DNA of 64,000 nucleotides from Chloroflexota bacterium (GTDB taxonomy: Bacteria; Chloroflexota; Dehalococcoidia; Bin125). Each line of letters opens with the position of its first letter. Position 1 is the stretch's first letter. A model generated the notes under the pieces. The model saw only the letters and a program-made list of their open reading frames with translations, was not told the origin of the DNA and made no database searches. The stretch is from the NCBI GenBank assembly GCA_028874365.1, contig JAPPJZ010000062.1:52611-116610 (forward strand), in the 5' to 3' direction. Shown one piece after another: positions 7,184-59,159 of the stretch. The position numbers were made by a program, and so were the translations under genes.

Positions 7184-7186
7184 CGA

Positions 7187-8071: not shown

Positions 8072-8102
8072 CAGGCCGGCCGCCTTCTGCGTTCGCTGAG
8101 CA

Positions 8103-8657: not shown

Positions 8658-8738
8658 TCGCCATCCGCCCACGCTTGCCATAATCGATAGCCTGCGCGCA
8701 CCGGCCCCGCGCACTCCGCTCATTCAGGGAGCTTCGCA

Positions 8739-9308
8739 ATGCAACGCACCGCCGACGAGTACCCGGCCCGTCTCGACATCGAGTACCCGCAATCGCTCGA
8801 TCGCATCTCGACCCTGCTCCGACCGATCCTCGCAATCCCCGTCGTCGTCCTGCTCTGGTTCATCCCGCCGATGCTCTGTACGCCGGTCGCCCTGGTGCTC
8901 GTGGTGCGTCGCAAGTATCCGCGCTGGTGGTTCGACTTCAATCTCGAAGCCACCCGCTTCCACAACCGCGTCTATGCCTATCTCAATCTGATGACCGACC
9001 GGTATCCATCGACGGACGAAGAACAGTCGGTGCGGCTTGACCTCGACTACCCCGACGCCGCCCAGCTCAACCGATGGCTGCCGTTGTTCAAGTGGTTCCT
9101 GGCGATTCCGCACTACATCATCATCTGGGTGCTGGTCGGCATCCAGAACATCGTCGTGTTGATCGCCTGGTTCGCGATCCTGTTCAGCGGAACCTATCCG
9201 CGACCGCTGTTCACCTTCATGCTCAACGTCGAGCGCTGGGTCCTCCGCGTCGAGGCCTACGCCTTCCTCCTGATCACCGACCGCTACCCACCCTTCCGCC
9301 TCGGCTAG
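8739..9308 (+). CDS. DUF4389 domain membrane protein
   Basis: KYPRWWFDFNLE motif and two hydrophobic segments typical of DUF4389. Confidence 0.7.
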   Translation: MQRTADEYPARLDIEYPQSLDRISTLLRPILAIPVVVLLWFIPPMLCTPVALVLVVRRKYPRWWFDFNLEATRFHNRVYAYLNLMTDRYPSTDEEQSVRLDLDYPDAAQLNRWLPLFKWFLAIPHYIIIWVLVGIQNIVVLIAWFAILFSGTYPRPLFTFMLNVERWVLRVEAYAFLLITDRYPPFRLG

Positions 9309-9311
9309 CAG

Positions 9312-18564: not shown

Positions 18565-18600
18565 CTCCCTCTCCCTCTGGGAGAGGGTTGGGGTGAGGGC
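18565..18600. repeat. family-B hairpin repeat (CTCCCTCTCCC-tctg-GGAGAGGGttGGGGTGAGGGC)
   Basis: Recurs at 19430, 33176, 50281 and, in reverse orientation, at 51914 and 52003. Confidence 0.7.
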
Positions 18601-18691
18601 CGCCCCTTCCGACAACCACGATACACCAACCACGAACACCCTTTCTGTATAGTGACCAGAACGTACGTTCACGCTCAGAGAGGGTCCGACC

Positions 18692-19429: not shown

Positions 19430-19508
19430 CCCCTCTCCCTCTGGGAGAGGGTTAGAGCCTGCCCCCGCGAAGGCGGGGGGTGAGGGTCCCGCGAAGCCCG
19501 CCCCGCAC
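19430..19508. repeat. composite B+A hairpin repeat
   Basis: CCCTCTCCCTCTGGGAGAGGG + CCCCCGCgaagGCGGGGGG + GGGTCCCGCgaagCCCGCCCC. Confidence 0.65.
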
Positions 19509-33175: not shown

Positions 33176-33210
33176 CTCTCCCCCTGGGAGAGGGATGGGG
33201 TGAGGGTTCC
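33176..33210. repeat. family-B hairpin repeat
   Basis: ctctccccctgggagagggatggggtgagggttccc. Confidence 0.65.
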
Positions 33211-41372: not shown

Positions 41373-42545
41373 ATGTTCGACTCCACCATCGTCGACCTGC
41401 GCTACTACCTGGTCCATCCCACCCCGCCGGACACTGGCCAGCCCGACCGCTACATCGCCGGCAAGAACCTCTGCTTCGTCCGACTCGAAACCGCCGACGG
41501 CCTCCACGGTTGGGGCGAGTGCTACACACAGTCCGACCGCGACATCCAGATCACGGCCCACCTCGAGGCCATGCGGCGCTACATCGTCGGCTGGGACGCG
41601 GCACGGATAAAGCCCTGGACCGACGCGATCCACAACGACTTCGGCAACCGACGCGGCGCCATGGACCTCTACTCCGCCATCTCCGGCGTCGAGCAAGCCA
41701 TGTGGGACCTCGCCGGCAAGCGAGCCAATATGCCCGTCCATCAGCTACTCGGCGGTGCCGTCCGCGACCGCCTGCGCGTCTACGCCAACGGCTGGGCCAA
41801 GATGGACGACCTCGAGGAGCTCCAGTCCCGCGCTCGCGCCATGGTCGACCGAGGCTTCAACGCGCTCAAGTTCGACCCCGTCCCGGGCAAATGGCGCAGC
41901 TACGTCGGCATGAGCCAACTCCGCCTCGCCACCGAACGCGTCCGAGCCGTGCGGGAGGCCGTCGGCCCCGACGTCGACGTCCTGCTCGAGATCCACCGCC
42001 GCCTCAGTCCTTCCAACGCCGTCCGACTCTCGAAGATGGTCGAAGAGTACGAACCCTTCTGGTTCGAGGAGCCGGTCTGGGCCGAGAACATGACCGCCCT
42101 CGCAGCCGCCACCGCGCAGATCAACATCCCCACCGTCACCGGCGAGGAGCTCTACACCAAGTTCGAGTTCCGCGAGGCCTTCGAGCAGCGCGCCGCCGAC
42201 ATCATCAACCCCGACGTCGCCAACGTCGGCGGGATCAAGGAGCTGACCGAGATCGCGGCGATGGCCGAGATCTACTTCGTGGCCGTCGCGCCGCACAACT
42301 ACAACTCGACCACCATGGCGCTCGCCTCAACCCTCAACGCCGCCGCCACGATGCCCAACTTCATCATCACCGAGTACTTCGTCAACTTCGAACCTTGGGG
42401 CCAGCAAGCCGCCGCCCCACCCTTCGAGGTCGAAGACAGCCACATCGCCCTCCCCACCGCCCCAGGCCTCGGCCTAGATCTCGACGAAGAAGTGCTCAAG
42501 GCACACCCAGCCAAAGACTTCCCCACCCGCACGATTGGAGGCTGA
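41373..42545 (+). CDS. enolase-superfamily enzyme (mandelate racemase / muconate-lactonizing / sugar-acid dehydratase type)
   Basis: Capping domain plus TIM-barrel pattern with conserved metal-binding D/E region ...KFDP...EEP...; 390 aa. Confidence 0.8.
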   Translation: MFDSTIVDLRYYLVHPTPPDTGQPDRYIAGKNLCFVRLETADGLHGWGECYTQSDRDIQITAHLEAMRRYIVGWDAARIKPWTDAIHNDFGNRRGAMDLYSAISGVEQAMWDLAGKRANMPVHQLLGGAVRDRLRVYANGWAKMDDLEELQSRARAMVDRGFNALKFDPVPGKWRSYVGMSQLRLATERVRAVREAVGPDVDVLLEIHRRLSPSNAVRLSKMVEEYEPFWFEEPVWAENMTALAAATAQINIPTVTGEELYTKFEFREAFEQRAADIINPDVANVGGIKELTEIAAMAEIYFVAVAPHNYNSTTMALASTLNAAATMPNFIITEYFVNFEPWGQQAAAPPFEVEDSHIALPTAPGLGLDLDEEVLKAHPAKDFPTRTIGG

Positions 42546-42549
42546 CTCG

Positions 42550-42999
42550 ATGCGCCAGCTCAGCGCCATCCTGCCGGAAGACGCCTGCACCTACCGCGGC
42601 GACCGCTGGGTGTCGATCTTCATCGTGCTGCTCACTATCGTTGCGACCCTGCGCAGCGTGATCCATATCGCCCGGCACGACGGCGGCGCCGCATCTATCG
42701 CGGGCATCGACATCGAGGTCGAGGGCGGGCAGAACATCGTCGCGATCTTCGCTCAGTGGGGCTTGGTGCAACTCCTGCAGGCCTCGCTCGGCTGGGTCGT
42801 CGTGTGCCGCTACCGAGGATTGATTCCACTGATCCTGCTGATCAGCCTGCTCGAGAACGTCGGGCGAATTGTCATTGGCCGCTCAAAGCCGCTCAAGGTG
42901 GCGAAACCGCCGCCGGGCGCATACGGCTCCCTGATCATCTCGCCGATCCTGCTCATCGCCTTCTGGCGCTCACTGCCTCAGAGTGAACGCTCGCCGTGA
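42550..42999 (+). CDS. hypothetical membrane protein (4 TM)
   Basis: Start overlaps enolase stop (GGAGGCTGA ctcg ATG); hydrophobic segments. Confidence 0.45.
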   Translation: MRQLSAILPEDACTYRGDRWVSIFIVLLTIVATLRSVIHIARHDGGAASIAGIDIEVEGGQNIVAIFAQWGLVQLLQASLGWVVVCRYRGLIPLILLISLLENVGRIVIGRSKPLKVAKPPPGAYGSLIISPILLIAFWRSLPQSERSP

Positions 43000-43883
43000 T
43001 CGGCATGCCGACTCATGAAGTCCCGCAACGCAGCGATGACCCGCTCCGGCGCCTCCTCGGCGACGAAGTGACCAACGTCGTCGTAGTCGTAGACCTCGGT
43101 GTAGTCCAATGCCGACCGCCAGCGATCCAACTCCTTCCGGCGAAACGCGATGTCCCGCAGACCCCAAAAGATCAGCGTCGGCTTGTCGACGAATCGCGCC
43201 CGGTCCTCCCAGATATCACCCAGCCACTGGCTCGCCCGGATGATGTGACCAGGCAGCGCAGCACAGGCCGAGCGATCGCGCGGCGATGGCTGGGCACTGC
43301 GGTAGTGCGCCATCATCTCGGCTGTAATCGCCGACCTGGCAGCGATCGCTCTCGGCATCACCCCATTGACGAAGAAGTTGCGACGTTTGATCAGGTACTG
43401 TCCCAGCGGACACCACATCATCAGGCTGAACATCAGGAAGTGCGGGTCGCGGTTGACCGGCCAGCACCACGTGTTGGCCAGTACCATCCGCGAAACACGC
43501 CCCGGCCGACGACGAGCAAAGTCGAGACCAATCGGCCCGCCCCAGTCCGTCATCAACAACGTGATCTCACTGACGTGCAGCTCGTCCAACAGCGCCGCCA
43601 GCCGCCGAGCATGTGCATGCGGGTGGTGGTCGTCCTTGTTGTCGCTGCGAGACGACAATCCGAATCCCACATGATCGGCAGCGATGCAGCGATAGTCGGA
43701 CCGCAGGTCGGCGATCAGGTGGCGAAACTCGAACGACCAGGACGGATTGCCATGTACGAAGACGATGGCCGGGCCTTCGCCCTCATCGACATAGTGCATC
43801 CGCTGTCCGTCGGGCGTCTCGAAGTACCGGCTCTCGAACGGGTACATCTCGTCGGAGACCCATCCGGGCCTCACACCGTTCAT
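42978..43883 (-). CDS. alpha/beta-fold hydrolase, haloalkane-dehalogenase-like
   Basis: FVHGNPSWSFEFRHLI (compare HGNPTSSYLWR), nucleophile-elbow region DWGGPIG. Confidence 0.75.
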   Translation of the reverse strand: MNGVRPGWVSDEMYPFESRYFETPDGQRMHYVDEGEGPAIVFVHGNPSWSFEFRHLIADLRSDYRCIAADHVGFGLSSRSDNKDDHHPHAHARRLAALLDELHVSEITLLMTDWGGPIGLDFARRRPGRVSRMVLANTWCWPVNRDPHFLMFSLMMWCPLGQYLIKRRNFFVNGVMPRAIAARSAITAEMMAHYRSAQPSPRDRSACAALPGHIIRASQWLGDIWEDRARFVDKPTLIFWGLRDIAFRRKELDRWRSALDYTEVYDYDDVGHFVAEEAPERVIAALRDFMSRHADHGERSL

Positions 43884-43922
43884 GACGCAGACTCCCGACG
43901 AGACGTCCCGTCTGGAGCCCCA

Positions 43923-45215
43923 CTACAACAACGCTTCGTAGACGCCCTTCTCGAAGTCGGTCTCCAGGTACGCGACGGGGTTGAACTGGTACATGAACAC
44001 GTGGGTGAAGAACAGTCCGGCGAGGTTCTCGGCCGGGTCAACGAAGAACCACGTGCCCGCGGCGCCGCCCCATCCGTATGTGCCGACACTGCCGGGATAC
44101 GCCGTGCCGGCGATCCGGTCGCGCACCGCGTATCCGAACCCGAATCCAAATCCGGGGCCGGCCAAATCGATCTCCGTTCCGCAGATCGCGCCGAGGTGGT
44201 TCGCGGTCATCAGCTCAATCGTCTTCCGACCGAGTACACGCACCCCGTCCAGTTCTCCGCCGTTGAGCAGCATCGCGGCGAAGCGCGTGTACGCCGCCGG
44301 CGTCATCAGCACGCCACCGTACAGTCCGTTGCCGGATATCTGCTGGCCCAGCGACTCGCGCACCTTGTGCGAGGTCTCGGGCCGCTCGACCGGATTGAGC
44401 GCGCCCTCCTCGGACCAGTGGTGATTGGTGACCAGTCGAGCGGCATCGCCAGGCGGACAGTAGAAGCCACAGCCCTCGACCCCCAGCGGTCCAAAGATCC
44501 GCTCCTGGAAGAGCTCGTCGAGGTTCTGCCCGGTCGCTCGTTCGAGCAGCAGGGTCAGGACATCGAAATCCGCCGCATACTCCCACGCCGCGCCGGGCTG
44601 CCGCGCGTTGGGGAGCTGCGCCATCTGCAGCACGCGTGTCTCCGCCGACACCGACGTATCGACAACGCCCGGGTTGGTGATCCCGAATTCGGTACCGCTC
44701 CAGGCCGGTTCGAGCAGCGGAAACATCCCCGACGGAATGTTGCCGAACGATGGCAAGCCCGATGTCATCGTCAGCAGATCGCGAATCGTGATCTGCCTGA
44801 CCATCGGCACCGTCTGGCCCATCAGCAAGCCCTGTCCACGGACCTTGTTGGGTGGATCGAACGGGGCCAAGACCTGGCGGTTCTCGAACTCCGGCAGCCA
44901 CTTCGTGATGGGCTCGTCAACGTAGAAGACGCCCTCCTCCTGCAGTTGCATCGTCAGCGCGGCCGTGACCGGCTTGGTCTGCGAGTACATACGGAACAGC
45001 GCGTCGATCGGCAGCGGATTCTTGCGTTCCGAATCCAGGTACCCGTGCGACGAGACGTGCGCGAGATGACCATGCCGAAGCAGAACCGTCACCACGCCGG
45101 GGACCTCGTCGTTCTCAACAGCTTGCGCCATGCGAGCGTCAACACGTGCCAGCCGCTCGGCGTCGATACCGAGCGAGGCAGGATCGGCGGCAGGAAGATT
45201 GGCAAAGTCGGACAT
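43923..45215 (-). CDS. beta-lactamase-family (class-C-like) serine hydrolase
   Basis: SQTK (SxxK) motif; start MSDFANLP at 45215 (track ORF extends to 45458). Confidence 0.75.
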   Translation of the reverse strand: MSDFANLPAADPASLGIDAERLARVDARMAQAVENDEVPGVVTVLLRHGHLAHVSSHGYLDSERKNPLPIDALFRMYSQTKPVTAALTMQLQEEGVFYVDEPITKWLPEFENRQVLAPFDPPNKVRGQGLLMGQTVPMVRQITIRDLLTMTSGLPSFGNIPSGMFPLLEPAWSGTEFGITNPGVVDTSVSAETRVLQMAQLPNARQPGAAWEYAADFDVLTLLLERATGQNLDELFQERIFGPLGVEGCGFYCPPGDAARLVTNHHWSEEGALNPVERPETSHKVRESLGQQISGNGLYGGVLMTPAAYTRFAAMLLNGGELDGVRVLGRKTIELMTANHLGAICGTEIDLAGPGFGFGFGYAVRDRIAGTAYPGSVGTYGWGGAAGTWFFVDPAENLAGLFFTHVFMYQFNPVAYLETDFEKGVYEALL

Positions 45216-45297
45216 GATCGGCTCCTTGCTGAAAGACTGGCCTGTCGAGGATAGGCGCTGGGATCGCGTAGTCTCGGCATGATCAAGGGAGGTCGGC

Positions 45298-46509
45298 ATG
45301 GCGTACGAGTATGACCGCAACATCCGCGACAGGGTGGCGGTGATCGGTGTCGGCGAGACGGAGTACACGAAGCACGGACGCATCGGGCGTCCGGAGTTCC
45401 GCCTCGCCCTCGAGGCCATCCTCGCCGCCTGCGCCGACGCAGGACTCGAACCACGCATGTTGGATGGCTTCTCCTCCTACTCCGCCGATCGCAACGATCC
45501 CAACCGGCTCTCGACGGCGCTCGATCTGCCCCACTACGCCTTCGCCTCGATGGTCTACGGCGGAGGTGGTGGAGGCGTCTGCGCGGCGATCGGCAACGCA
45601 GCCGCCGGCATCGTCGCCGGCTATGCCAACTTCGTCGTGGTCTACAGAGCCCTGGCGCAGGGCGAGTTCGGTCGCTTCGGCCAGTCACGCCGGGGCGGCC
45701 GGCTGCGAGGTCAGTACGCCTTCAATGTGCCCCAGGGCCTGATGTCGCCGGCACAGTTCCTGGCAATGAAGATGCAACGCCATATGTACGAGTACGGAAC
45801 TACGTCCGAACATCTGGGACACATCGCTGTCGCCGCGAACAAGCATGCGCAGAACAATCCCCGCGCGGTGATGAACGGACGGCCGATCACGCTGGAAGAT
45901 CATCAGAACTCCCGCATGATCGCCGACCCATATCGGCTCTACGACTGCTGCCTCGAGACCGATGGCGCAGCGGCAATGATCCTCACCACCGCGGAGATCG
46001 CCCGCGACTTCACCGACAAGCCGGTCTACCTGGCGGCTTCTGTGCAGGGCTCCGGCCATCGACAGGGCAACGTGGTGGATGGCTTCTGGCACGACGACTT
46101 CATGAGTTCCAACTACACGACGATGGTCGACCGGCTGTATTCGGCCGCAGGCATGGGCCCGGACGAGATCGACTGCGGTCAATTCTACGAGAACTTCACC
46201 GGCCAGGTGCTGACCTCGTTTGAGGACCACAAGTTCTGCGAGGTCGGCGAGGGCGGCCCCTTCTGCGAAGGCGGACGACTTGAGACGAAGCAGGTCGCCG
46301 AGCCCGGCGCACCGTACGCGGGCGAGTTCCCGATCAACACCTCCGGCGGCAATCTGTCCGAGGCATACACCCACGGATTCAATCTCGCCGTCGAAGCAAT
46401 CCGTCAGCTGCGAGGCGACTCGTCCAATCCGGTCGAAGGCGCGAGAACCTGCATTGTCGCGGCCGGTCCGGCGTCCGCGCCAATCTCGTCGGCGATCTTC
46501 CGCAACTGA
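45298..46509 (+). CDS. thiolase-like protein, SCP-x / lipid-transfer (Ltp) type
   Basis: Thiolase fold without the classic active-site Cys motif; GGGGGG loop; usual partner DUF35 lies nearby. Confidence 0.75.
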   Translation: MAYEYDRNIRDRVAVIGVGETEYTKHGRIGRPEFRLALEAILAACADAGLEPRMLDGFSSYSADRNDPNRLSTALDLPHYAFASMVYGGGGGGVCAAIGNAAAGIVAGYANFVVVYRALAQGEFGRFGQSRRGGRLRGQYAFNVPQGLMSPAQFLAMKMQRHMYEYGTTSEHLGHIAVAANKHAQNNPRAVMNGRPITLEDHQNSRMIADPYRLYDCCLETDGAAAMILTTAEIARDFTDKPVYLAASVQGSGHRQGNVVDGFWHDDFMSSNYTTMVDRLYSAAGMGPDEIDCGQFYENFTGQVLTSFEDHKFCEVGEGGPFCEGGRLETKQVAEPGAPYAGEFPINTSGGNLSEAYTHGFNLAVEAIRQLRGDSSNPVEGARTCIVAAGPASAPISSAIFRN

Positions 46510-46516
46510 GCCCGCG

Positions 46517-47551
46517 CTAGGAGAGCGCCCGCTTGATGCAGTGACTGGTCGGTAGCGAATGCTCTCCAGCCTCTCGCTGGGCGATCGCCTGCCCGAGCAT
46601 CTGCCCGATCTGATTCTGCAACTTGCGGGAACGCGTCCAGCCGATGAAGCTCTCCTGCATGATCGTCACCACATAGCGGGGTTGCGATCCGAGCCAGGGC
46701 GGAGCCAACCAGATGGCGGCGCTGTTCATCCGCACGAGGGCGCGCACCCTGCTCGCCTGTGACCGGAGCGGCGAGTCGCCGACTTCCTCTGCTTCTGCCT
46801 CGTCTTCGGCCCGCTGGAGGTCGCGTATGAGCAAGGCCGCGTCCTCGTAGTCGCGCGGGTTGATCTTTGCGATGGGATCGTCGTCCTCGGATTCGGGGAT
46901 CGTGAAGTTGCCGGTCTTGATCAGCGACTCCCAGCCGGGAAGCATGGGTTCGGGGATCGTTGCGCCCCAGCGGTGGTTGTCGACTACCTCGCGGAGCAGG
47001 TCGAAGCCATCGGCCCGCGCGTCGTGCGGGACGGACTCGGATCGCGCCAGCGCGGCGAAGAGCCGGGCCAGATGGATCGGCTCGGCCCGGCTGGCGCCCC
47101 AGCGGCTGCGATGGGTGAGTTCGATCAGTTCCGGAACGCCCCAGCGTTCGTAGTACTCGGTCAGTCCGGCCAGGCCGCCGATCATCGACAGCAAGGTGGT
47201 CACGTCGGGATTCTGCGACCAGGCGACCATGTAGAACAGGGCGTCACGTTGCAGCTTGGTCAGCTCCCTCCCCTCGTCGTACGCATCGCTGAGGATGGCC
47301 CAGGCGATGGGCGGCTTGATCACGCTATGCAGGGCGTATGGTCCCGAGTGGCCGCCGGTCCAGATCGTCTCGGTTTCCAGGTCATAGACCGCAGCGCCGA
47401 TCACGGCGTCAACGCTCAGCACTTGACGTTCGAATTCGTTCGAGAGGGCGCACAGCGGGGCGTCGGCCGAGGCCGGTCGGGGGACCGCGATCAAGATCAG
47501 GGCAGGGAGCATCAAGGCGGGCAACAGGGCGAGGGCGGGCAGTCGGCGCAT
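46517..47551 (-). CDS. secreted class-A-beta-lactamase-fold serine hydrolase
   Basis: Signal peptide; all three class-A motifs present: SVIK (SxxK), SQN (SDN-loop variant), KTG. Confidence 0.6.
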   Translation of the reverse strand: MRRLPALALLPALMLPALILIAVPRPASADAPLCALSNEFERQVLSVDAVIGAAVYDLETETIWTGGHSGPYALHSVIKPPIAWAILSDAYDEGRELTKLQRDALFYMVAWSQNPDVTTLLSMIGGLAGLTEYYERWGVPELIELTHRSRWGASRAEPIHLARLFAALARSESVPHDARADGFDLLREVVDNHRWGATIPEPMLPGWESLIKTGNFTIPESEDDDPIAKINPRDYEDAALLIRDLQRAEDEAEAEEVGDSPLRSQASRVRALVRMNSAAIWLAPPWLGSQPRYVVTIMQESFIGWTRSRKLQNQIGQMLGQAIAQREAGEHSLPTSHCIKRALS

Positions 47552-47594
47552 GCCGCGTCAGCGTACTAGGCAGACAACGCGTTACTCTCGCGCT

Positions 47595-48056
47595 ATGACG
47601 AGTTCGAGCCAGCCTGCGGAGTTCCTGGATGCCCCATACTTCCCGGACGGGATGAGCGTTCCGGACCCGGACGATGCGATCAACGGCGGTTACTTCGCCG
47701 CGGCCGCCGACAGGCGGCTCGTGGTTCAGCGCTGCGCCGACTGTGGCACTCGACAGTATCCGCCGGAGTTGAACTGCCATGCGTGCTACGGCTTCAACAT
47801 GGAGTGGGAAGAGTCGGTCGGGACCGGGACGGTCTGGTCGTGGGTCGAGGTCGTGCACCCTGCCCATCCGGCGTTGCGCGAGTTCGGGCCATACATGGTG
47901 GCGTTGGTCGAATTGGACGATATGCCCGAGATCAAGCTGATGGGCGCGGTGGTTGATGCTCCGCTGGGCGGGACGATGAAGATCGGCGCGCGGGTGCGTG
48001 TGGTCTTCGAGCGGACGGCGGACGACCTCGCACAACCACGCTGGCACATGGCATGA
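47595..48056 (+). CDS. DUF35 zinc-ribbon / OB-fold protein (thiolase partner)
   Basis: CADCGTRQYPPELNCHAC rubredoxin-like zinc ribbon followed by OB fold; start MTSSSQP. Confidence 0.75.
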   Translation: MTSSSQPAEFLDAPYFPDGMSVPDPDDAINGGYFAAAADRRLVVQRCADCGTRQYPPELNCHACYGFNMEWEESVGTGTVWSWVEVVHPAHPALREFGPYMVALVELDDMPEIKLMGAVVDAPLGGTMKIGARVRVVFERTADDLAQPRWHMA

Positions 48057-50312: not shown

Positions 50313-51854
50313 TTAGTCCTCCATGAGTGATTCGGCGACGCGTTCGCCGATCATGATTGCGGTGAGGTTGGTGTTGCAGCTGACGATGTCGGGCATGATT
50401 GAGGCGTCAGCGACCCGGAGGTTGTCGACCTGGTGGACTCGACCTCGTTGATCGGTGACGGCGAGGGGGTCGGTCGCGGGGCCCATCCTGGCGGTTCCGC
50501 AGATGTGCCAGGTAGTCGAAGTGGTGCGGCGGATGTAGTCGGCGAGGGCGCTGTCGGATTCCATCACGGTGGCGCGCGGAGCGATGACGCGGTCAACGAA
50601 GGGCATGATCTCGTCGGAGTGCATGATCTGCCAGCAGAGACGGGCGCCGTCCATGAGGCGGCGCAGGTCCTCGGGATGGGACGCGTAGTTCATGTCGAGT
50701 TGGGGCTGCTCGGCCGGGTCGGTCGAGCGGAGGGTGACCGAGCCGCGCGAGTGGGGCCGCTGGATGACTGCGCCGATGCCGAAGGAGGGATGCTGGCGCG
50801 GCGCTTCGGTGAGGCCGCGTACCTGGTCCTCGTCCCAGATGGTTGAGATCGCGATCTGCATGTCGTTGAACTGGTCGGAGCCGGGCGCGGTGTAGCGCAC
50901 GCCGATCTCGGTGACGACATCGGGATCGTGGATCACCTCCGGCTTAGGGAATGCCTGCACGCCGGTGCCGAAGTGGTCGATCAGGTTCTCGCCGACGCCG
51001 GGCAGGGGTACGCGCTGGGTAATGCCGTGGGGCGAAAGCTTCTCGGCCGGGCCAATGCCGCTGCGCAGCAGGATTGCGGGCGAGACGGCCGACCCTGCCG
51101 ACACGCAAACCCGATCGCTTCGGATTGCTTCGCCATCGCTCAGCACGACGCCGTTGACGCGAGCGCCGGATTCGCCGTCGAAGTTAAGGCGGTCAACGAG
51201 CACGTCGTGACGGATGGTCAAGTTGTCGCGGTCGCGGATGGCGAGCAGGTAGGCGATGTTGGTAGATATGCGATTGCCGTTGCGGCGATTTCGCGGCCAG
51301 GGTCCGACCCCCGTGGCGTCGGGCAGGTTGTGATCCCAGACATCATCGAAGCCGCTGACTCGACAGGCGTCATAGAAGGCGCGTTGGAGGGGCTGCCAGT
51401 TGGCTTCGGGCTCGCGCTCGATCGGGATGGGACCTGACTGTCCGTGGAAGTCGCCGCCCTCGGGATCGGACTCGAGGCGTCGATACCAGGGGAGCACATC
51501 CTCGAAGGCCCAGTCGTCGCAGCCGAGGGCGACCCAGGACTCGAAGTCTCCGGGTACGCCGCGAAGCGCGATGGTGCCGTTGACGGCGGAGGAGCCGCCC
51601 ATGACCTTGCCGCGGTGCAGGGGGAACTCGCGGCCGTGGCGAGCGTTGGCCTTGAAGCCCCAGTCGTGATCGCGCCAGGAGACCCAGGGCTTGAGCAGGT
51701 CGCGGGGCATCTCTTCGACGCGGGTGTAGTCGGGTCCTGCTTCGAGCAGCAGCACGCGGCGGTTGGGGTCTTCGGAGAGTCGGGCGGCGATCACGGCTCC
51801 GGCGGATCCGGCGCCGATGATGATGTCGTCGTAGGTCGGCATGTCATCCTCCAC
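50313..51854 (-). CDS. GMC-family FAD oxidoreductase (choline-dehydrogenase-like)
   Basis: IIIGAGSAGAVIAARLSE N-terminus, GMC signatures. Confidence 0.85.
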   Translation of the reverse strand: MEDDMPTYDDIIIGAGSAGAVIAARLSEDPNRRVLLLEAGPDYTRVEEMPRDLLKPWVSWRDHDWGFKANARHGREFPLHRGKVMGGSSAVNGTIALRGVPGDFESWVALGCDDWAFEDVLPWYRRLESDPEGGDFHGQSGPIPIEREPEANWQPLQRAFYDACRVSGFDDVWDHNLPDATGVGPWPRNRRNGNRISTNIAYLLAIRDRDNLTIRHDVLVDRLNFDGESGARVNGVVLSDGEAIRSDRVCVSAGSAVSPAILLRSGIGPAEKLSPHGITQRVPLPGVGENLIDHFGTGVQAFPKPEVIHDPDVVTEIGVRYTAPGSDQFNDMQIAISTIWDEDQVRGLTEAPRQHPSFGIGAVIQRPHSRGSVTLRSTDPAEQPQLDMNYASHPEDLRRLMDGARLCWQIMHSDEIMPFVDRVIAPRATVMESDSALADYIRRTTSTTWHICGTARMGPATDPLAVTDQRGRVHQVDNLRVADASIMPDIVSCNTNLTAIMIGERVAESLMED

Positions 51855-51913
51855 CTGTCGGCAGAGGATAGGTCAGGGTTTGGAGTTCATCCGATAATGT
51901 GACGCAGAGCGGG

Positions 51914-52050
51914 ACCCTCACCCTAACCCTCTCCCACGGGGAGAGGGGATCTGGCGGGGGCTCACTCACACCTTCTCCCAATGAGAGCGGGTTCGCAGGG
52001 AGACCCTCACCCTAGCCCTCTCCCAGGGGAGAGGGGACCAGAGGGGAGCA
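51914..52050. repeat. two tandem family-B repeats in reverse orientation
   Basis: ccctcaccctaaccctctcccacggggagagggg and ccctcaccctagccctctcccaggggagagggg. Confidence 0.7.
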
Positions 52051-52072
52051 CGAAGAGCGTAGTGAGATTGAC

Positions 52073-54511
52073 ATGAGCGACAGTCTGCTGGCCGCCTATG
52101 AGGGTCTTGTTGTCTTGGACATGTCGAGGCGGATGTCGGGGGCGTTCGCGGCGCGGCTGTTTGGCGATCATGGCGCCGATGTTGTGATGCTGGAACCGCC
52201 GGAAGGTCATCCGGTGCGGCACGAGGCGCCGTTCCTGGAGGACGTTCCGGGGGCTGAGCGTTCGGCGTTGCACGCGTACGTCAACTGGAACAAGCGATCG
52301 GTGGTGATCGGCAGGCCGGCGGAGGCGGAAGCGTGGATTGTCCGTGCGGATGTGGTGATCACGACTGACGGGCGCGAAGAATTGCAGGCTTGGCCGCTCT
52401 CGGCGATGCAAATGGACGCGGTGCATCTATCGGTGACGCCGTATGGCCTTGAGGGTCCCTTGGCCGATACGCCGGGCGGCAATCTGACGCTAAACGCGCG
52501 CTGCGGTTGGGCGTACGTGAATGCCCTGCGCGACGAATCGCCATTGGCGCTGCCTTCGCGTCAGTTTGGCTACATGGGTGGACTGGCCGGATTCGTCGCG
52601 GGCGCCGCGGCGCTGCACCGCCGGTCCGAATCCGAGTCACCCGAGCTGGTCGATGTGCGCGAGCTGGAGGCGATGACGCACACCATCTATCCGTGGTCGA
52701 TTGGCGCGATCTATCAGGGCACGGGTTGGTCGCGGGGGGCGACGGGCGGGCGGCCTCGCGGGGAGCCCGGCCCGCTCTGGGAAGCGGCGGACGGTCGGAT
52801 GAACTTCGGATTCGGCGACTGGCATAACTGGGCTGAGGCGATGGCGCTGTTCAACCTGCCAGATCAGGGCGCGCGCGAGGATCTGCAGGCGCGTAACGCG
52901 CGGTACTCGAAGGATCTGTCGGCCGTGATGGCCGGGGTAGCGCGTGAGTTGCCGACGATGGAGAAGTGGCCGCTGTTTCACCGACTGGCGGAGTTGCGCT
53001 GCATTTCGGGTGTGATGCAGACGATTCCCGAGCTTGTTGAGAATGAGCAGTTTGCGGCACGGGGGTTCATTGTCGAGACCGAGCTGGCGGGCGAGAGGGT
53101 TCGGGCGTCGGGTGATCCGCATCCGATGAGTCCGCCGAGCTGGTCGGTGCGGTCGGCGGCGCCCGTGCTTGGATCGGACGATCGTGAGCCCCGGAGATCA
53201 GAACTGGATCGGCCGGTCAGCGTCCCGACGACGAAGGGGCCGCTTGATGGGGTGCGGGTTCTGACGTTTACCCAGGCGTGGAGCGGGACGTTTGGGACGG
53301 AGTTGCTGGGATTTCTGGGAGCGGACGTGGTTCAGATTGAGGCGCTTCGGCGGGTAGATATCTGGCGGCTGCTGCGGCCGTGGGTGCCGGACGCGATTCG
53401 GGACGACTCGAAGACGCAGCATCCGGTCAACCTGCAGGGGGTGTACAACGCGGTCAACCTGAACAAACGGGGGATCACTCTGGATCTGGGCACCGACGAA
53501 GGCAAGGAGATCTTCTGGCGGATGATGCCGAAGTTCGATGTGGTCTGCGAGAACTTCCGGCCAGGGGTGCTCGAGGGCTGGGGGATCACGCTGGAATCGT
53601 TAGCCGAGCAGCGCTCGGATGTGATCCTGGCGTCGATCTCGGGCTATGGCGCGACGGGGCCATTTTCGGCCTATCCGGCGAACGGCGCGACGACGGAGCC
53701 GATGTCCGGGCTGTCATCGATTCACGGATACGAGGGCGATCCGGGAATGAACACGGGCGGTCTGTATCCGGATTCGATCTCCGGTTACTCGATGGCCGGA
53801 GCGATCATCGCGGCGCTCGCGCGGCGCGAGCGGGTGACGGGGCCGCAGCGAATCGACGTGGCGATGCTTGAGGCGATGGGCGTGGTCGTCGGGGATGCGG
53901 TGCTCGAGTACGACGCGACCTCGCGGATGCCGGCGCCGATGGGCAACTTCGACAGACAGCGAGCTCCACATAACATCTACCCGTGCGCAGGGGACGACGA
54001 GTGGGTCGCGATCTCGGTCCATTCGGAGTCGGAGTGGCAGGCGCTTTGCGGGGAGATTGGCCAGGAACGACTGTCGGAGGATCCGCGATTCGATAATGCT
54101 GCGTCGCGTAAGGCGAACGAAGAGCGGTTGGACGAGATCATCACGAGCTGGACCGCCGATCGCGAATCGATCGAGGCCGAACAACGGTTAGTGGCTGTCG
54201 GGGTTGATGCGGCTCGGGTCGCGCGACCGTACGAGCAGTTCTCGGAGCCGGATCCGAACTACCTGGCGAGCGGGTTCATCCAGTCGGTACACCATCCCGA
54301 GGTCGGACCGTCGTGGCTGCCAGGTGCGCCCTGGCGATTGAGTGGGGCGGAGGATCGAGCGCTGAGGCCATCACCTTGCGTGGGCGAGCACTCGTTCGAG
54401 GTGTTCGCGCAGGAGTTGGGAATGACGGAGGCCGAGTACCGAGAGCTCGTGGAGCGGGGGATCAGCGGCACGATGGACGACGTGGCGGCCAGGAAGGCGC
54501 AAGCCCGCTGA
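52073..54511 (+). CDS. tandem-duplicated family-III CoA-transferase (CaiB/BaiF-like), two domains in one 812-aa protein
   Basis: Both halves start with the GxLxGxRVLD-type motif (LAAYEGLVVLDMSRRMSGAFAARLFGDHGADVV and GPLDGVRVLTFTQAWSGTFGTELLGFLGADVV). Confidence 0.8.
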   Translation: MSDSLLAAYEGLVVLDMSRRMSGAFAARLFGDHGADVVMLEPPEGHPVRHEAPFLEDVPGAERSALHAYVNWNKRSVVIGRPAEAEAWIVRADVVITTDGREELQAWPLSAMQMDAVHLSVTPYGLEGPLADTPGGNLTLNARCGWAYVNALRDESPLALPSRQFGYMGGLAGFVAGAAALHRRSESESPELVDVRELEAMTHTIYPWSIGAIYQGTGWSRGATGGRPRGEPGPLWEAADGRMNFGFGDWHNWAEAMALFNLPDQGAREDLQARNARYSKDLSAVMAGVARELPTMEKWPLFHRLAELRCISGVMQTIPELVENEQFAARGFIVETELAGERVRASGDPHPMSPPSWSVRSAAPVLGSDDREPRRSELDRPVSVPTTKGPLDGVRVLTFTQAWSGTFGTELLGFLGADVVQIEALRRVDIWRLLRPWVPDAIRDDSKTQHPVNLQGVYNAVNLNKRGITLDLGTDEGKEIFWRMMPKFDVVCENFRPGVLEGWGITLESLAEQRSDVILASISGYGATGPFSAYPANGATTEPMSGLSSIHGYEGDPGMNTGGLYPDSISGYSMAGAIIAALARRERVTGPQRIDVAMLEAMGVVVGDAVLEYDATSRMPAPMGNFDRQRAPHNIYPCAGDDEWVAISVHSESEWQALCGEIGQERLSEDPRFDNAASRKANEERLDEIITSWTADRESIEAEQRLVAVGVDAARVARPYEQFSEPDPNYLASGFIQSVHHPEVGPSWLPGAPWRLSGAEDRALRPSPCVGEHSFEVFAQELGMTEAEYRELVERGISGTMDDVAARKAQAR

Positions 54512-54570
54512 TATCGTTGCGACAGTTGAAGAGACTGTTGAATTTGTCCCGACTGAAGTTGGAGTGACGT

Positions 54571-57500
54571 ATGGCTGTGAGTGTTTCCGTGTCTCCCGTT
54601 TCGAAGCTGCTGATCACCAATCGCGCGGAGATCGCGATCCGGGTTGCGCGCGCGGCTTCGGACCTTGGAATCGAAACGGTCGCCGTCTACTCGACGGACG
54701 ACGCGAAGTCGCTTCACGTTCACTCGGCCGATGAGGCGGTGGAACTCGATGGATTGGGCGTGCCGGCTTACCTGAACATCGATGGACTGATCGAGGCAGC
54801 TCGGTCGACCGGTTGCGACGCGGTGCATCCGGGCTACGGATTCCTGGCGGAGTCGGCGGAGTTCGCTCGCGCCTGCCGCGATGCGGGGATCACGTTCGTG
54901 GGTCCGACGCCGCATCTGTTGGATCTGTTCGGCGACAAGGTCCGGGCGCGGCAGGCGGCTCGGGAGGCCGGGGTTGCGGTGATCGAAGGCTCGGACGAGG
55001 CGGTGACGTTGGCGGAGGCGTTGGAGTTCTTCGAGTCGCTGGGAGACGATGCGGCGATCATGGTCAAGGCCGTTGCGGGCGGCGGCGGCAGGGGTTCGCG
55101 GGCGGTGACGCAGATCGAGGACCTGGAGGCAGCCTGGGAGCGATGCGTCTCGGAGGCGCAGATGTCGTTCGGATCCGGCGCGCTGTACGTGGAGCAACTG
55201 ATTCCTCGCGCGCGGCACATCGAGGTGCAGGTGATCGGCGATTTGCACGGTGGGGTTGGACATCTCTGGGAGCGGGAGTGTTCTGTGCAGCGACGATTTC
55301 AGAAGATCGTCGAGATTGCTCCGGCGCCGCATCTGGCTTCATCGACGCGAGAGGAGATCGTCGAGGCGGCGGTGCGGATTGCTCGCGATGTGGGTTATTC
55401 GTCGCTGGGCACGTTCGAGTTCCTGCTCGATGCCTCCGAGGGTTCCAATGATCGGTTCTACTTCCTTGAGGCCAACGCGCGTTTGCAGGTCGAGCACACG
55501 GTGACCGAGCAGGTCACCGGCGTTGACCTGGTTCAGTCGCAGCTTCGCGCGGCGCGGGGAGCGACGATTGCCGAGCTGGGACTGGACGACGCATCGTGGC
55601 TGCGACCGCGCGGATTTGCGATTCAGACGCGGGTGAACATGGAGACGCTGACCGCTGACGGGTCGGTGCGTCCGGCGTCGGGGACGCTCAAGGCGTATGA
55701 GGCGCCATCCGGGCCCGGGGTTCGGACCGACGGGTTTGGCTATGTCGGTTATCAGACGTCGACGGCATTCGATTCGCTGCTGGCCAAGGTGATCGCGCAT
55801 TCGCCGACGCCGAAGCTCGAGGATGCGTTGACGCGCTCGTTGCGGGCGCTGTCGGAGTTCCGGATTGAGGGGGTGGCTTCCAACATTCCGTTCCTGACGA
55901 ACGTGCTGGAGCATGCCGACCTGGCGGAGGGTCGGGTTCACACGCGCTGGGTGGACGAGCAGATGGCCGAGCTCGCGGCGAGCAACGGCGCTCAGCGGGT
56001 CCGATATCTCTCGACCGAAGCGCCCGCGGCCGACACGGGCTTCGCAGGCGCTCGGGTCGACTCGCGCGATCCACTGGCGTTGTTCGAGCACGACCAACGC
56101 GTGAAGCAGGAGCAGTCGATCCAGGTGGTCGAGGAAGACGCGCCGGATCTGACTGGTCCGGAAGGATCGATCGGTCTGCCGGCGCCGATCCAGGGGACGA
56201 TCGTGTCGATCATGGTGGAGGAAGGCCAGGAGGTGCGGAGGGGTCAGGACCTGGTGGCGATGGAAGCGATGAAGATGGAGCACGTGATCCAGGCGGATCG
56301 CGACGGGATCGTGAAGGGGATCGCCTGCTCGGTCGGCGACGTGATTCGCGAGGGGTTCCCGCTGGTGTTCATTCTCGAGGCGGAGGTGTCGGTCGAGGCG
56401 CTTGGCGGCGGCGAGCTGATCGACCCGGACTTCATTCGCCCGGACCTGCAGGAGAACTACGATCGGCACGCGTACACGCTGGACGAGAATCGGCCGGTGG
56501 CGGTGGGCAAACGGCGCGGTCGCGGGTATCGGATGCCGCGGGAGAACATCGAGCAGCTTGTTGATCCCGGTTCGTTCCAGGAGTATTGGCCGCTGATCGT
56601 GGCGCGTCAGCACCAGCGCAACACCGACGAGCAATTGCGCGAGAACACTCCGGCGGACGGCCTGCTGGCGGGGACGGCGACGATCAACGGAGATCTGTTT
56701 GACGACGAGCGCGATGCGCGGGCGATTGTCGTGCATTACGACTACACGGTGCTGGCGGGCACTCAGGGCGGTCGCAACCACTACAAGCAGGACCGCATGT
56801 TTGAGATGGCGCGGCGGTTCAACTTCCCGATTGTGTTCTACACCGAGGGCGGCGGCGGTCGACCGGGTGACGACCGGACTGGTCCCGGCGTCGCGTTCGA
56901 TACGTACACGTTCACGCAGTTCTCGAAGCTGTCGGGCCTGGTGCCGCTGGTCGGAGTGACCAATGGTCGCTGCTTCGCCGGCAATACGGCGCTGTTGGCC
57001 TGTTGCGATGTGATCATTGCGACGGAGGGCTCGACCGTTGCGATGGGTGGTCCGGCAATGATCGAAGGCGGCGGACTTGGCATCTACACGCCTGAGGAGG
57101 TCGGGCCGATGTCGTTCCAGGTGCCGAACGGCGTGGTGGACATTTTGTGCAGGGACGAGGAAGAGGCGACCGAGGTCGCGAAGCAGTATCTGAGCTACTT
57201 CCAGGGTCCGACTAAGGAGTGGACCGCGCCGGACCAGCGGCGGTTGCGCCACATCGTGCCGGAGAATCGGCTGCGTCTGTATGACATGAAGGAGATCATC
57301 GAGACGATCGCCGACGAAGGCTCGGTGCTTGAGATCCGGGAGAAGTTTGGGATTGGGATCATCACGGCGTTGATCCGAGTCGAGGGTTATCCGATTGGAG
57401 TGATCGCTAACAATCCGCATCACCTGGCGGGTGCGATCGACTCGGATGGCTCGGACAAAGGGGCGCGATTCCTGCAGCTCTGCGACGCGTTCGACATCCC

Positions 57501-57993
57501 GGTGCTGAGCCTGATGGACTGCCCGGGGATGATGGTCGGGCCGGACGTAGAGGCGACGGCGCTCGTGCGGCACTGCGCGAGAATGTTCAACACCGGGGCC
57601 AACCTTAGCGTGCCGTTGTTCGGCGTGGTCGTGCGCAAGGCCTACGGACTCGGGGTGCAGGCGATGTGCGGCGCGAGCGCACTGGTCGGATTCTTCACCG
57701 TGGCCTGGCCGACGGCGGAGTTCGCCGGGATGAACCTTGAAGGCTCGGTCAAGTTGGGCTACCGCAAGGAGCTGATCGCGATCGAGGACCCCGACGAGCG
57801 GATTGAGACCTACGAGAACATGGTCAACCGGGCCTACGAGAACGCCAAGGCGGTCAACGCAGCGGCGGGCGGCGGCCTGGACGATGTTATCGATCCGGCG
57901 GAGACGAGAACGTGGGTTGTCAACGGTCTCAAGCGTCTACCACCGACGCCTGAGCGACGGGGGAAGAAGCGGCCGTATATCGATACGTGGTAG
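54571..57993 (+). CDS. single-chain biotin-dependent acyl-CoA carboxylase (biotin carboxylase + BCCP + carboxyltransferase)
   Basis: N-terminal ATP-grasp BC; biotinyl-Lys motif EAMKMEH; C-terminal crotonase-fold CT domain; 1140 aa. Confidence 0.85.
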   Translation: MAVSVSVSPVSKLLITNRAEIAIRVARAASDLGIETVAVYSTDDAKSLHVHSADEAVELDGLGVPAYLNIDGLIEAARSTGCDAVHPGYGFLAESAEFARACRDAGITFVGPTPHLLDLFGDKVRARQAAREAGVAVIEGSDEAVTLAEALEFFESLGDDAAIMVKAVAGGGGRGSRAVTQIEDLEAAWERCVSEAQMSFGSGALYVEQLIPRARHIEVQVIGDLHGGVGHLWERECSVQRRFQKIVEIAPAPHLASSTREEIVEAAVRIARDVGYSSLGTFEFLLDASEGSNDRFYFLEANARLQVEHTVTEQVTGVDLVQSQLRAARGATIAELGLDDASWLRPRGFAIQTRVNMETLTADGSVRPASGTLKAYEAPSGPGVRTDGFGYVGYQTSTAFDSLLAKVIAHSPTPKLEDALTRSLRALSEFRIEGVASNIPFLTNVLEHADLAEGRVHTRWVDEQMAELAASNGAQRVRYLSTEAPAADTGFAGARVDSRDPLALFEHDQRVKQEQSIQVVEEDAPDLTGPEGSIGLPAPIQGTIVSIMVEEGQEVRRGQDLVAMEAMKMEHVIQADRDGIVKGIACSVGDVIREGFPLVFILEAEVSVEALGGGELIDPDFIRPDLQENYDRHAYTLDENRPVAVGKRRGRGYRMPRENIEQLVDPGSFQEYWPLIVARQHQRNTDEQLRENTPADGLLAGTATINGDLFDDERDARAIVVHYDYTVLAGTQGGRNHYKQDRMFEMARRFNFPIVFYTEGGGGRPGDDRTGPGVAFDTYTFTQFSKLSGLVPLVGVTNGRCFAGNTALLACCDVIIATEGSTVAMGGPAMIEGGGLGIYTPEEVGPMSFQVPNGVVDILCRDEEEATEVAKQYLSYFQGPTKEWTAPDQRRLRHIVPENRLRLYDMKEIIETIADEGSVLEIREKFGIGIITALIRVEGYPIGVIANNPHHLAGAIDSDGSDKGARFLQLCDAFDIPVLSLMDCPGMMVGPDVEATALVRHCARMFNTGANLSVPLFGVVVRKAYGLGVQAMCGASALVGFFTVAWPTAEFAGMNLEGSVKLGYRKELIAIEDPDERIETYENMVNRAYENAKAVNAAAGGGLDDVIDPAETRTWVVNGLKRLPPTPERRGKKRPYIDTW

Positions 57994-58019
57994 GTCGAGT
58001 GTCGAAGCAAGGGTTTGGG

Positions 58020-58096
58020 TGGCGACCCCGAGCGGATTCGAACCGCCGATCTCCACCTTGACAGGGTGGCGTGTTAGGCCGCTACACCACGGGGCC
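58020..58096 (-). tRNA. tRNA-Asp (anticodon GTC), CCA encoded
   Basis: Hand-folded cloverleaf: acceptor GGCCCCG/CGGGGTC, anticodon stem CCACC/GGTGG with loop CTGTCAA, T-loop TTCGAAT. Confidence 0.85.
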
Positions 58097-58171
58097 GTTG
58101 GGCTAGCTTACGCGGACTGGTGATGATCGGCAACAGCGCGTAACGTGTAAGCGGAGCGTCGGAGATTGCAG

Positions 58172-58549
58172 ATGGCACGCGGTTCACGACGAGGACGGGG
58201 TGGCTCGAACCGGGCTCAGCGAGCGGCGCGGCCGCAAGGTCGGCGCGGACAACGGGGTCGCGAGGACCGGCTGCCGACGGCCCAGGCGGGGGCCGCGAAT
58301 GCGCCCGCAGGCGCGTCGATCAGCGGCAACATCCAACAACCGACGCGGATGGGTCCACGAGGCGGACGGGCGCCCGGAGGCCCACGGGGCGGGGCGGGGG
58401 GAGCGGTCGAACGTCGAGACCGCCGGGCCCGTGCGGCGGCGGCGATGCACGACTTCCACTACGTGCCCGGCGACCTTCGCTGGGTTGCCATCACGACGGT
58501 GGCGAGCGTTGTGCTGGTGCTCGCGCTGTGGGCGGCGATCACGCTGTAG
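58172..58549 (+). CDS. hypothetical Arg/Gly-rich protein with C-terminal TM helix
   Basis: GGAG SD; high GC3; could be spurious. Confidence 0.3.
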   Translation: MARGSRRGRGGSNRAQRAARPQGRRGQRGREDRLPTAQAGAANAPAGASISGNIQQPTRMGPRGGRAPGGPRGGAGGAVERRDRRARAAAAMHDFHYVPGDLRWVAITTVASVVLVLALWAAITL

Positions 58550-58602
58550 CGGCGAGCAGGCTCGCTTCTCTGAGCAGACCCGTGTCTGCATGCTGGTCGA
58601 GA

Positions 58603-58646
58603 TGCCCCCCTCTGCCTGCGGCATCTCCCCCCGCGGAGCGGGGGGA
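58603..58646. repeat. family-A repeat, inverted orientation, partial
   Basis: gcccccctctgcctgcggcatctccccccgcggagcggggggag. Confidence 0.6.
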
Positions 58647-58700
58647 GAAAAAATCCGAAGAGCTTAGGCTGAGGCCCCCACGAGGGTGTCGGCGGCCTAT

Positions 58701-59159
58701 CTATGCCTCGGTGGGTGGATCGACGAGGGCGAACGTTAAGCGGCCCTCGGCGGCGGTTTGGCCTTCGATGGTTGCGGTTGCGGCGGCTCGGCCGATGCCC
58801 CGGCGGAGGCGTTCCATTTCGACTTCGAGCCTGAGTTGATCGCCGGGGACGACCTGGCGACGAAAGCGGACGCCGTCGATGCCAGCGAACAGTCCGAGTT
58901 TGCCTGCGAACTCGTCCGCCGACAGTGCTGCGACTGCGCCGGTTTGAGCGAGGGCCTCGACGATCAATACGCCGGGCATGATTGGATTGCCGGGGAAGTG
59001 TCCCTCGAAGAACCACTCGTTAGTTGAGACGTTTTTCACTCCTACGGCGCGTCGGCCGGGCTCGAGTTCGACGATGCGGTCGACCAGCAGGATGGGGAAT
59101 CGGTGGGGGATGATTCGTTGGATCGCTCGCACGTCAAGCGGAAGTTGCAGGTCGGTCAT
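58701..59159 (-). CDS. fabZ: 3-hydroxyacyl-ACP dehydratase
   Basis: Hot-dog fold with [12 protein letters not shown] catalytic motif. Confidence 0.85.

Follow-up and report, generated by a model that had tools for sequence, protein, structure and literature searches.

The active sites of family-III CoA-transferases sit at the interface of two interlocked subunits. Formyl-CoA transferase (Frc) is a homodimer with two such sites, and its tandem partner oxalyl-CoA decarboxylase (Oxc) is a thiamine diphosphate-dependent decarboxylase, not an ATP- and biotin-dependent carboxylase. In BbsEF, the succinyl-CoA:(R)-benzylsuccinate CoA-transferase (PDB 9FN0, 9FOL), the E and F parts are separate subunits, and in DddD of the marine bacteria Marinomonas MWYL1 and Endozoicomonas acroporae two CaiB-like domains are joined in one chain of ∼820–840 aa (PMC7174347). 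Long-chain acyl-CoA carboxylases (LCCs) are rare and have a proposed part in the metabolism of carbon and nitrogen; one of them, MapLCC, accepts C2–C16 acyl-CoAs (PMC6491548), and the family has a solved structure (PDB 4RCN, 5FIF). Here we describe a locus in which a didomain family-III CoA-transferase of 812 aa and an LCC-family acyl-CoA carboxylase, a biotin-dependent enzyme with a single chain of 1140 aa, are encoded next to each other. It lies in a 64,000-nt stretch of DNA from a Chloroflexota bacterium of the class Dehalococcoidia (assembly GCA_028874365.1, contig JAPPJZ010000062.1, positions 52,611–116,610), the whole of which is referred to below as the window. As judged from sequence, the two genes probably constitute an operon by which a carboxylic acid is activated after its import and subsequently carboxylated.

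The transferase gene occupies positions 52073–54511 and the carboxylase gene positions 54571–57993, both on the plus strand. Both open reading frames (ORFs) were verified at these coordinates, with a GC content at third codon positions of 0.79 and 0.81, respectively, as in real genes (the GC content of the window is 65%). The intervening spacer of 59 nt (54512–54570, plus strand) contains a GGAG sequence (54561–54564) that is located 6 nt before the ATG of the carboxylase gene. A scan of positions 51700–58800 for terminators and promoters revealed no terminator and no convincing promoter, such a scan being uninformative for a Chloroflexota genome. Because the spacer lacks a terminator, the transferase and the carboxylase are probably co-transcribed. 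A record identical to the 812-aa protein exists under the name 'CoA transferase [Chloroflexota bacterium]' from a Chloroflexota metagenome-assembled genome (MAG), and the closest genomic relatives are Dehalococcoidia MAGs, many of them with sponge-type bin names.

The arrangement is shared by distant genomes. A scan of one genome per species yielded 80 loci with transferase relatives, 74 of which had enough flanking sequence to be informative for LCC pairing, and in 59 of these 74 the transferase gene has an LCC gene as its immediate downstream neighbor. A downstream LCC gene on the same strand was found in 45 of the 48 loci from Chloroflexota, 10 of the 22 from Gammaproteobacteria and other Pseudomonadota, all three from Alphaproteobacteria, and the only one from Planctomycetia (1/1). 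The gap between the two genes has a median of 21–86 nt in the related loci, in line with the 59 nt in the window. All-against-all clustering of 944 ORFs from the 80 loci showed nothing beyond the pair to be conserved outside Chloroflexota, and no thioesterase, mutase or epimerase among the clustered neighbors travels with it. The flanks of the cassette often hold uptake genes (MFS, ABC SBP_bac_5 and TonB-dependent receptors), and an Amidohydro_3 gene is also frequent. The LCCs of the cassettes form one clade with 62–70% identity to the window LCC across phyla, as compared to 49–53% for other LCCs, which points to joint movement of the pair and to its horizontal spread in this form. Members of this clade always follow a didomain CoA-transferase. 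On a 4.7-kb contig (CAMDVY010000296.1) binned in a 'Klebsiella pneumoniae' MAG, the encoded transferase has 52% identity to that of the window, like those of marine Gammaproteobacteria, and the contig is probably mis-binned. In a limited literature collection, we found no paper describing the transferase–LCC pair, nor the wider habit of LCC genes to occur with an acid activator. It is the pairing that is the new point: the transferase and the carboxylase each have a known family, and fusion as in the transferase is common, so the sense of rarity conveyed by a preliminary description of this DNA was overstated.

The transferase matches Pfam family PF02515 in two stretches (448 bits), which correspond to two unequal halves. 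The C-terminal half (residues ∼389–800, positions 53237–54472, plus strand) has BbsF as its best PDB match (9fn0_B, 8.5e-50) and scores 173–176 bits to BbsF versus 102–108 bits to BbsE. Its D567 (codon 53771–53773) is aligned to D178 of BbsF and D173 of YfdE, and since the title of PDB entry 9fol ('BbsEF, D178-CoA adduct') names an adduct of D178, this column is that of the covalent catalytic residue. The best PDB match of the N-terminal half (residues ∼8–365, positions 52094–53167, plus strand) is BbsE (9fn0_A, 6e-21), with 78 bits as compared to 39 bits for BbsF, and the scores overall are 78–92 bits to BbsE versus 39–55 bits to BbsF. In this half, the column of the catalytic Asp (D173 of YfdE) is occupied by Gly166 (codon 52568–52570). 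In an alignment of the window transferase with 73 homologues from the fetched loci (74 sequences), D567 is invariant (74/74), and the residue at position 166 is Gly in 67 sequences, Ala, Tyr and Ser in two each and His in one, with Asp or Glu in none of the 74. The mean identity in this alignment is 62% for the N-half versus 64% for the C-half (50% versus 54% in the distant subset), and the GADV...E N-terminal motif is kept in the N-half. This level of conservation argues that the N-half is under purifying selection and is not a decaying copy. A catalytic Asp is thus found in only one of the two subunit-equivalents, and the protein counts as a family-III enzyme through its C-half only.

BbsE/BbsF show the same asymmetry, with the Asp only in the F-type part, and so do three didomain enzymes that are distant from the window protein, those of C. 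metallidurans, Bosea and Variovorax. The differences from BbsEF are that the catalytic column holds Tyr in BbsE and Gly in the N-half of the window protein, that the two parts are separate subunits in BbsEF and are fused in the order E–F in the window, and that the identity is only 24–29%. An AlphaFold2 model of the 812-aa protein (61 sequences; mean pLDDT 86.8, pTM 0.92) is consistent with the two halves being packed in a fixed arrangement, and they would form an interlocked pseudo-dimer as in other family-III enzymes. In Foldseek searches the model matched BbsF, YfdE, Frc and SUGCT with a probability of 1.00, and BbsF and BbsE were among the best matches by TM-score normalized to the target (0.90 and 0.80, respectively). 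Because the Asp is present only in the C-half and the N-half is nearly as conserved and BbsE-like, the protein is best read as a heterodimer of the BbsE/BbsF type that has been fused and has a single canonical active site, and not as a duplicated enzyme. By analogy with the interface sites of the family, the N-half would be a non-catalytic partner that completes this site at D567. An origin of the halves by recent tandem duplication was rejected, as they share 27% identity over 216 aa and each is nearer to a different Bbs subunit. The pseudo-heterodimer in a single chain that the preliminary description had proposed is therefore borne out. Its 'two complete domains' hold for the fold, which is present in both halves, and fail for the catalytic aspartate; conversely, the degenerate duplicate that it had named as the contrary outcome agrees with the N-half in the missing Asp and disagrees with it in the absence of decay.

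Two segments of the transferase stand apart from the rest of the model. The inter-domain linker (residues ∼366–388, positions 53168–53236, plus strand) has pLDDT values of 74–81 and varies in length among homologues, which carry insertions of up to ∼60 residues (alignment columns ∼430–490). In one homologue (P0012, locus L004, positions 9135–9180), the linker insert is in frame and contains a GC-rich palindrome, CTCCCCCC-GCTCCGC-GGGGGGAG, which suggests that a repeat element is tolerated inside the coding linker. The loop ahead of D567 (residues ∼537–563, positions 53681–53761), with its invariant NGATTEPM, HGY and MN motifs, is among the most conserved stretches of the protein. The same loop has the lowest confidence of the AlphaFold model (pLDDT 37–67) and is possibly a mobile active-site lid.

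Fusion of the two transferase domains, which the preliminary description had regarded as unusual, turned out to be widespread. The survey covered the best 150 matches at the 50%-identity cluster level from a search of 1.84 billion cluster representatives, and ∼140 of these 150 are 780–880 aa long and match both halves; in addition, the characterized enzyme DddD carries a pair of CaiB domains on a single chain (PMC7174347). The subfamily of the window transferase itself is narrow, since only four of the 150 representatives have an identity of ≥42%, after which the values drop to ≤38%. Plasmids and chromids of cultured bacteria often carry the fused gene, and the unfused E+F pair is likewise frequent there. 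In Paraburkholderia caribensis MBA4, two adjacent genes (7974–9116 and 9135–10352 of the fetched locus, 380 and 405 aa) with an 18-nt gap align end to end with the fused window transferase and likely represent a pre-fusion or fission state. The window transferase resembles DddD in having two CaiB domains with the Asp in the C-terminal one; the active-site residue of DddD is reportedly Asp602, which would fall in its second domain. Among the loci from Dehalococcoidia and Anaerolinea, three contain two adjacent transferase paralogues each (L033, L036 and L038) and two contain two LCC paralogues each (L035 and L058), which indicates family expansion.

The carboxylase contains biotin carboxylase (BC), biotin carboxyl carrier protein (BCCP) and carboxyltransferase (CT) units in one polypeptide and in that order, as defined by the Pfam matches Biotin_carb_N, CPSase_L_D2 and Biotin_carb_C (residues 10–462), Biotin_lipoyl (538–600) and Carboxyl_trans (649–1121). 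The fusion of all three functional units that had been read from the sequence is correct, but it is that of a described family: the protein is colinear with the single chain of ∼1100 aa of PDB entry 4rcn ('long-chain acyl-CoA carboxylase'), which it matches along its BC part as well as its BCCP-CT part (E = 0, 1031 bits), and there are further matches to 5fif and 5h80, which are fragments of single-chain carboxylases. The identity is only ∼50–55%, and the clade of the window protein is a separate one. Taken by itself, the CT domain has scores of 613 bits to 4rcn and 545 bits to 5fif, as compared to 235 bits to the 12S transcarboxylase, ∼205 bits to the β subunit of propionyl-CoA carboxylase (PCC) and ∼120 bits to methylcrotonyl-/geranyl-CoA carboxylases (MCC/GCC). 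No CT of an acetyl-CoA carboxylase (ACC) in the PDB outranks the PCC-type matches, and the match to the ACCA model is partial (30.9 bits). These scores place the carboxylase in the LCC type and outside the cluster of housekeeping ACCases, in agreement with what the preliminary description had expected, and its CT nearer to α-carboxylating than to γ-carboxylating (MCC/GCC) enzymes. The motifs predicted for catalytic competence are present, namely the biotinylation motif AMKM (residues 566–569) with the biotinyl-lysine K568 (codon 56272–56274) and the ATP-grasp motifs GGGGRG at residue 170 and NARLQVEH (NxRLQVEH motif) at residue 302. Further traits by which the LCC type is defined are a homohexamer with domain-swapped catalysis and a preference for long-chain acyl-CoA.

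Enzymes that activate acids are also found next to LCC genes outside the cassette. An AMP-binding ligase gene is located immediately upstream of the LCC gene in Tistrella mobilis, overlaps it from the upstream side in D. radiodurans, and is found upstream of it in Acuticoccus and, together with a CaiB gene, in R. opacus PD630. In Paracoccus jeotgali, two such genes lie ∼3.5–7 kb upstream on the same strand, with four ABC-transporter genes in between. C. metallidurans CH34 has an operon of an LCC, a different didomain transferase (25% identical) and a TctC carboxylate-binding protein, and in Haematobacter a didomain transferase gene adjoins the LCC gene and is divergently transcribed. The pairs with an AMP-forming acyl-CoA synthetase would follow the same two-step logic as the window pair with a carboxylase 49–53% identical to the window LCC, but there activation costs ATP and is carried out by an unrelated enzyme family. 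This recurring theme supports a dedicated activation–carboxylation route. With the pair conserved over four phyla or classes and LCCs elsewhere accompanied by ligases or didomain transferases, the dedicated acid-activation and carboxylation unit of the preliminary description is very probable. In mycobacteria, the LCC neighbors are short-chain dehydrogenases/reductases (SDRs), a kinase-like protein and acyl-CoA dehydrogenases. The mycobacterial search, for which a CT fragment of MapLCC was reconstructed out of the PDB alignment, returned mostly truncated proteins. In M. heckeshornense, the LCC homologue (positions 7081–9791 of its locus) is a BCCP-CT protein of 596 aa with two small ORFs (153 and 151 aa) at the expected place of the BC, and the LCC gene is possibly disrupted; the genes that follow it encode two SDRs, a kinase of the APH type and two acyl-CoA dehydrogenases.

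In the proposed mechanism, the free acid would first be thioesterified by CoA transfer at D567, with no ATP spent, and Asp567 would form an acyl-aspartyl anhydride and a CoA thioester as intermediates. With BbsEF, SUGCT, YfdE and Frc as models, the CoA donor would most likely be succinyl-CoA or another dicarboxylyl-CoA. The LCC would then use ATP and bicarbonate to carboxylate the acyl-CoA, presumably at its α-carbon, and the resulting substituted malonyl-CoA would enter central metabolism or serve as the CoA donor for the next round. The transferase and the carboxylase would be coupled both physically and functionally. Frc/Oxc likewise combines a family-III transferase with an enzyme by which a carboxyl group is put on the CoA ester or taken off it; Frc is a structural relative of the window transferase, but the reaction direction of that pair is opposite. 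Several observations weigh against the activation–carboxylation operon. Adjacency alone is no proof that the product of the transferase is the substrate of the carboxylase. In 12 of the 22 loci from Gammaproteobacteria and other Pseudomonadota, no LCC gene is present within the fetched flank of the transferase gene. The LCC genes of P. aeruginosa and M. heckeshornense have no adjacent activating enzyme, and the latter locus has no transferase, so the association of activators with LCCs is frequent and not universal. In addition, the N-half of the transferase may have a catalytic carboxylate at a displaced position.

One alternative is that the two genes are unrelated neighbors, the LCC being a general acetyl-/propionyl-CoA carboxylase of lipid synthesis or propionate metabolism and the transferase one of the many CaiB paralogues of SAR202-like Chloroflexota. 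The LCCs are 96–97% identical where the transferases are 85–89% identical, RNase Y, RecA and a FabA-like gene belong to the same syntenic block as the LCC gene, SAR202 genomes contain dozens of CaiB paralogues each (PMC5395668), and the C2–C16 range of MapLCC (PMC6491548) would fit such a general role. On the other side, the pairing survives in Proteobacteria and Planctomycetia despite the loss of all other synteny. Proteobacteria normally have AccABCD, so that the LCC is accessory there, which counts against a housekeeping role. Together with the LCC type of the CT domain, the paralogous duplications of both genes described above, which are typical of catabolic families, and the repeated recruitment of an activating enzyme by LCCs, this makes chance adjacency rather improbable. 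We consider unlikely, too, a closed CoA cycle in which the carboxylated product donates its CoA to the next free acid, with a net conversion of acid, bicarbonate and ATP to a free substituted malonate. The Frc/Oxc cycle recycles CoA between its two enzymes, and a closed cycle would be its mirror in reverse. It would account for the conservation of only these two genes together across phyla, unaccompanied by a thioesterase, mutase or epimerase, and for the closest relatives being BbsF, SUGCT, YfdE and Frc, as family-III enzymes typically handle dicarboxylyl-CoA donors. However, a free alkylmalonate has no obvious use, and neither an exporter nor a downstream enzyme accompanies the pair consistently. 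Moreover, LCCs that are paired with AMP-forming ligases (in Tistrella, D. radiodurans, R. opacus and Acuticoccus) must have their CoA recycled otherwise, which implies that the CoA ester of the product is consumed downstream.

The marine and sponge-associated hosts of the cassette would also suit a transferase/lyase of the DddD type, in which a zwitterionic osmolyte such as dimethylsulfoniopropionate or a related sulfonium or ammonium propionate is activated, a volatile group is released, and the three-carbon acyl-CoA is assimilated by the carboxylase. DddD has the same two-CaiB-domain architecture (PMC7174347) and is the best Swiss-Prot match of the SAR202 CaiB paralogues (PMC5395668). This architecture is weak evidence, because it is common to >140 diverse clusters, and the best structural and sequence relatives of the window transferase are BbsE and BbsF. 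No protein named DddD was found among the transferase hits, 20 cluster representatives or the plasmid searches, and the window cassette has no ddd gene context and no sign of lyase activity; no BCCT transporter, DddB/DddC-type dehydrogenase or DddR was seen by the cassette, either in the window neighborhood or among the annotated neighbors at related loci. We regard a DddD-type reaction as very unlikely. Still more improbable is a larger Bbs-like pathway for β-oxidation of a substituted dicarboxylic acid that would include the GMC oxidoreductase encoded upstream, an SCP-x-type thiolase (45298–46509) and a DUF35/ChsH2-type partner (47550–48056). The BbsE- and BbsF-like halves of the transferase point to it, as do the thiolase and Zn-ribbon/OB-fold pair 4–7 kb upstream, which is reminiscent of BbsAB, the synteny of the GMC, thiolase and DUF35/ChsH2-type genes in many Chloroflexota loci, and a distant didomain transferase of Variovorax SRS16 that clusters with a thiolase, an OB-fold protein, an enoyl-CoA hydratase and MaoC. 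However, this synteny also includes RNase Y and RecA and vanishes outside Chloroflexota (the GMC gene is found in 0/29 loci), the genes are interrupted by oppositely oriented β-lactamase-like and MFS efflux genes, and the stretch contains no acyl-CoA dehydrogenase, hydratase or hydroxyacyl-CoA dehydrogenase. Scores with the BbsA and BbsB models are far below the cutoffs (19.5/250 and 98/750 bits, respectively), no bbs β-oxidation genes, benzylsuccinate synthase, acyl-CoA dehydrogenase, hydratase or SDR pair are present near the cassette, and the transferase has the carboxylase as its partner.

The divergent GMC-family FAD oxidoreductase gene (50313–51854, minus strand, 513 aa; Pfam GMC_oxred_N and GMC_oxred_C) had been counted as part of the route in the preliminary description. 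It is present in 40 of the 51 Chloroflexota loci and, as stated above, in none of the 29 others, and within Chloroflexota it is part of a syntenic block that encodes PHP and FabA-like proteins besides RNase Y and RecA, so the link is phylogenetic and not demonstrably functional. The protein scores 347.7 bits with the NCBIfam model MftG (mycofactocin dehydrogenase), below the cutoff of 387.45. The suggested likeness to 3-hydroxypropionate or ethylmalonyl-type chemistry finds nothing in its support in the window: no malonyl-CoA reductase, propionyl-CoA synthase, malyl-CoA lyase, Mct, crotonyl-CoA carboxylase/reductase or mutases were present among the scanned window proteins. The divergent intergenic region of 218 nt between the GMC and transferase genes (51855–52072) contains two palindromic repeats (51913–51947 and 52002–52035) that resemble repetitive extragenic palindromes (GACCCTCACCCTARCCCTCTCCC...GGGAGAGGG). 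Further intergenic copies are located at 18567–18601, 19431–19451 and 33186–33208, and these matches from pattern searches occur where the chance expectation is none.

Apart from this, the locus has the ordinary catabolic genes of a sponge-associated, SAR202-like Chloroflexota genome, and the rest of the window is likewise typically SAR202-like in content. The thiolase ('lipid-transfer protein') and DUF35/ChsH2 pair (45298–48056) is split by an opposite-strand β-lactamase-like gene, an arrangement that is conserved in related Dehalococcoidia. Two FtsX-type permease proteins of ∼1100 aa are encoded in tandem at 9312–15901 (minus strand), and elsewhere on the plus strand are genes for a tryptophan-halogenase-like flavoprotein (19628–21292), a luciferase-like monooxygenase (16991–18286) and an enolase-superfamily enzyme (41373–42545). 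An ORF of 752 aa at 42996–45254 (plus strand) was rejected as a gene, as it has no Pfam match and overlaps better-supported genes on the minus strand.

A bolder view of the pair is that it forms a self-contained, horizontally mobile two-enzyme machine by which bicarbonate is fixed onto a free acid that is abundant in the sea or onto an osmolyte-derived acyl group, in a closed CoA cycle or after a DddD-like lyase step. We regard this as distinctly doubtful, but if it were true, it would tell on what substrate the LCC family acts physiologically, and SAR202-like Chloroflexota, sponge symbionts and marine Gammaproteobacteria would have a new route for assimilating dissolved organic matter. The activation–carboxylation operon that we favor has meaning for both enzyme families. 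The transferase is a further example of a fused family-III CoA-transferase in which one half is a conserved pseudo-enzyme. For the carboxylases, the repeated wiring of LCC genes to an acid-activating enzyme offers a concrete handle on the LCC substrate, and in the cross-phylum marine clade the partner of the LCC is always a fused BbsEF-like transferase with one active site.

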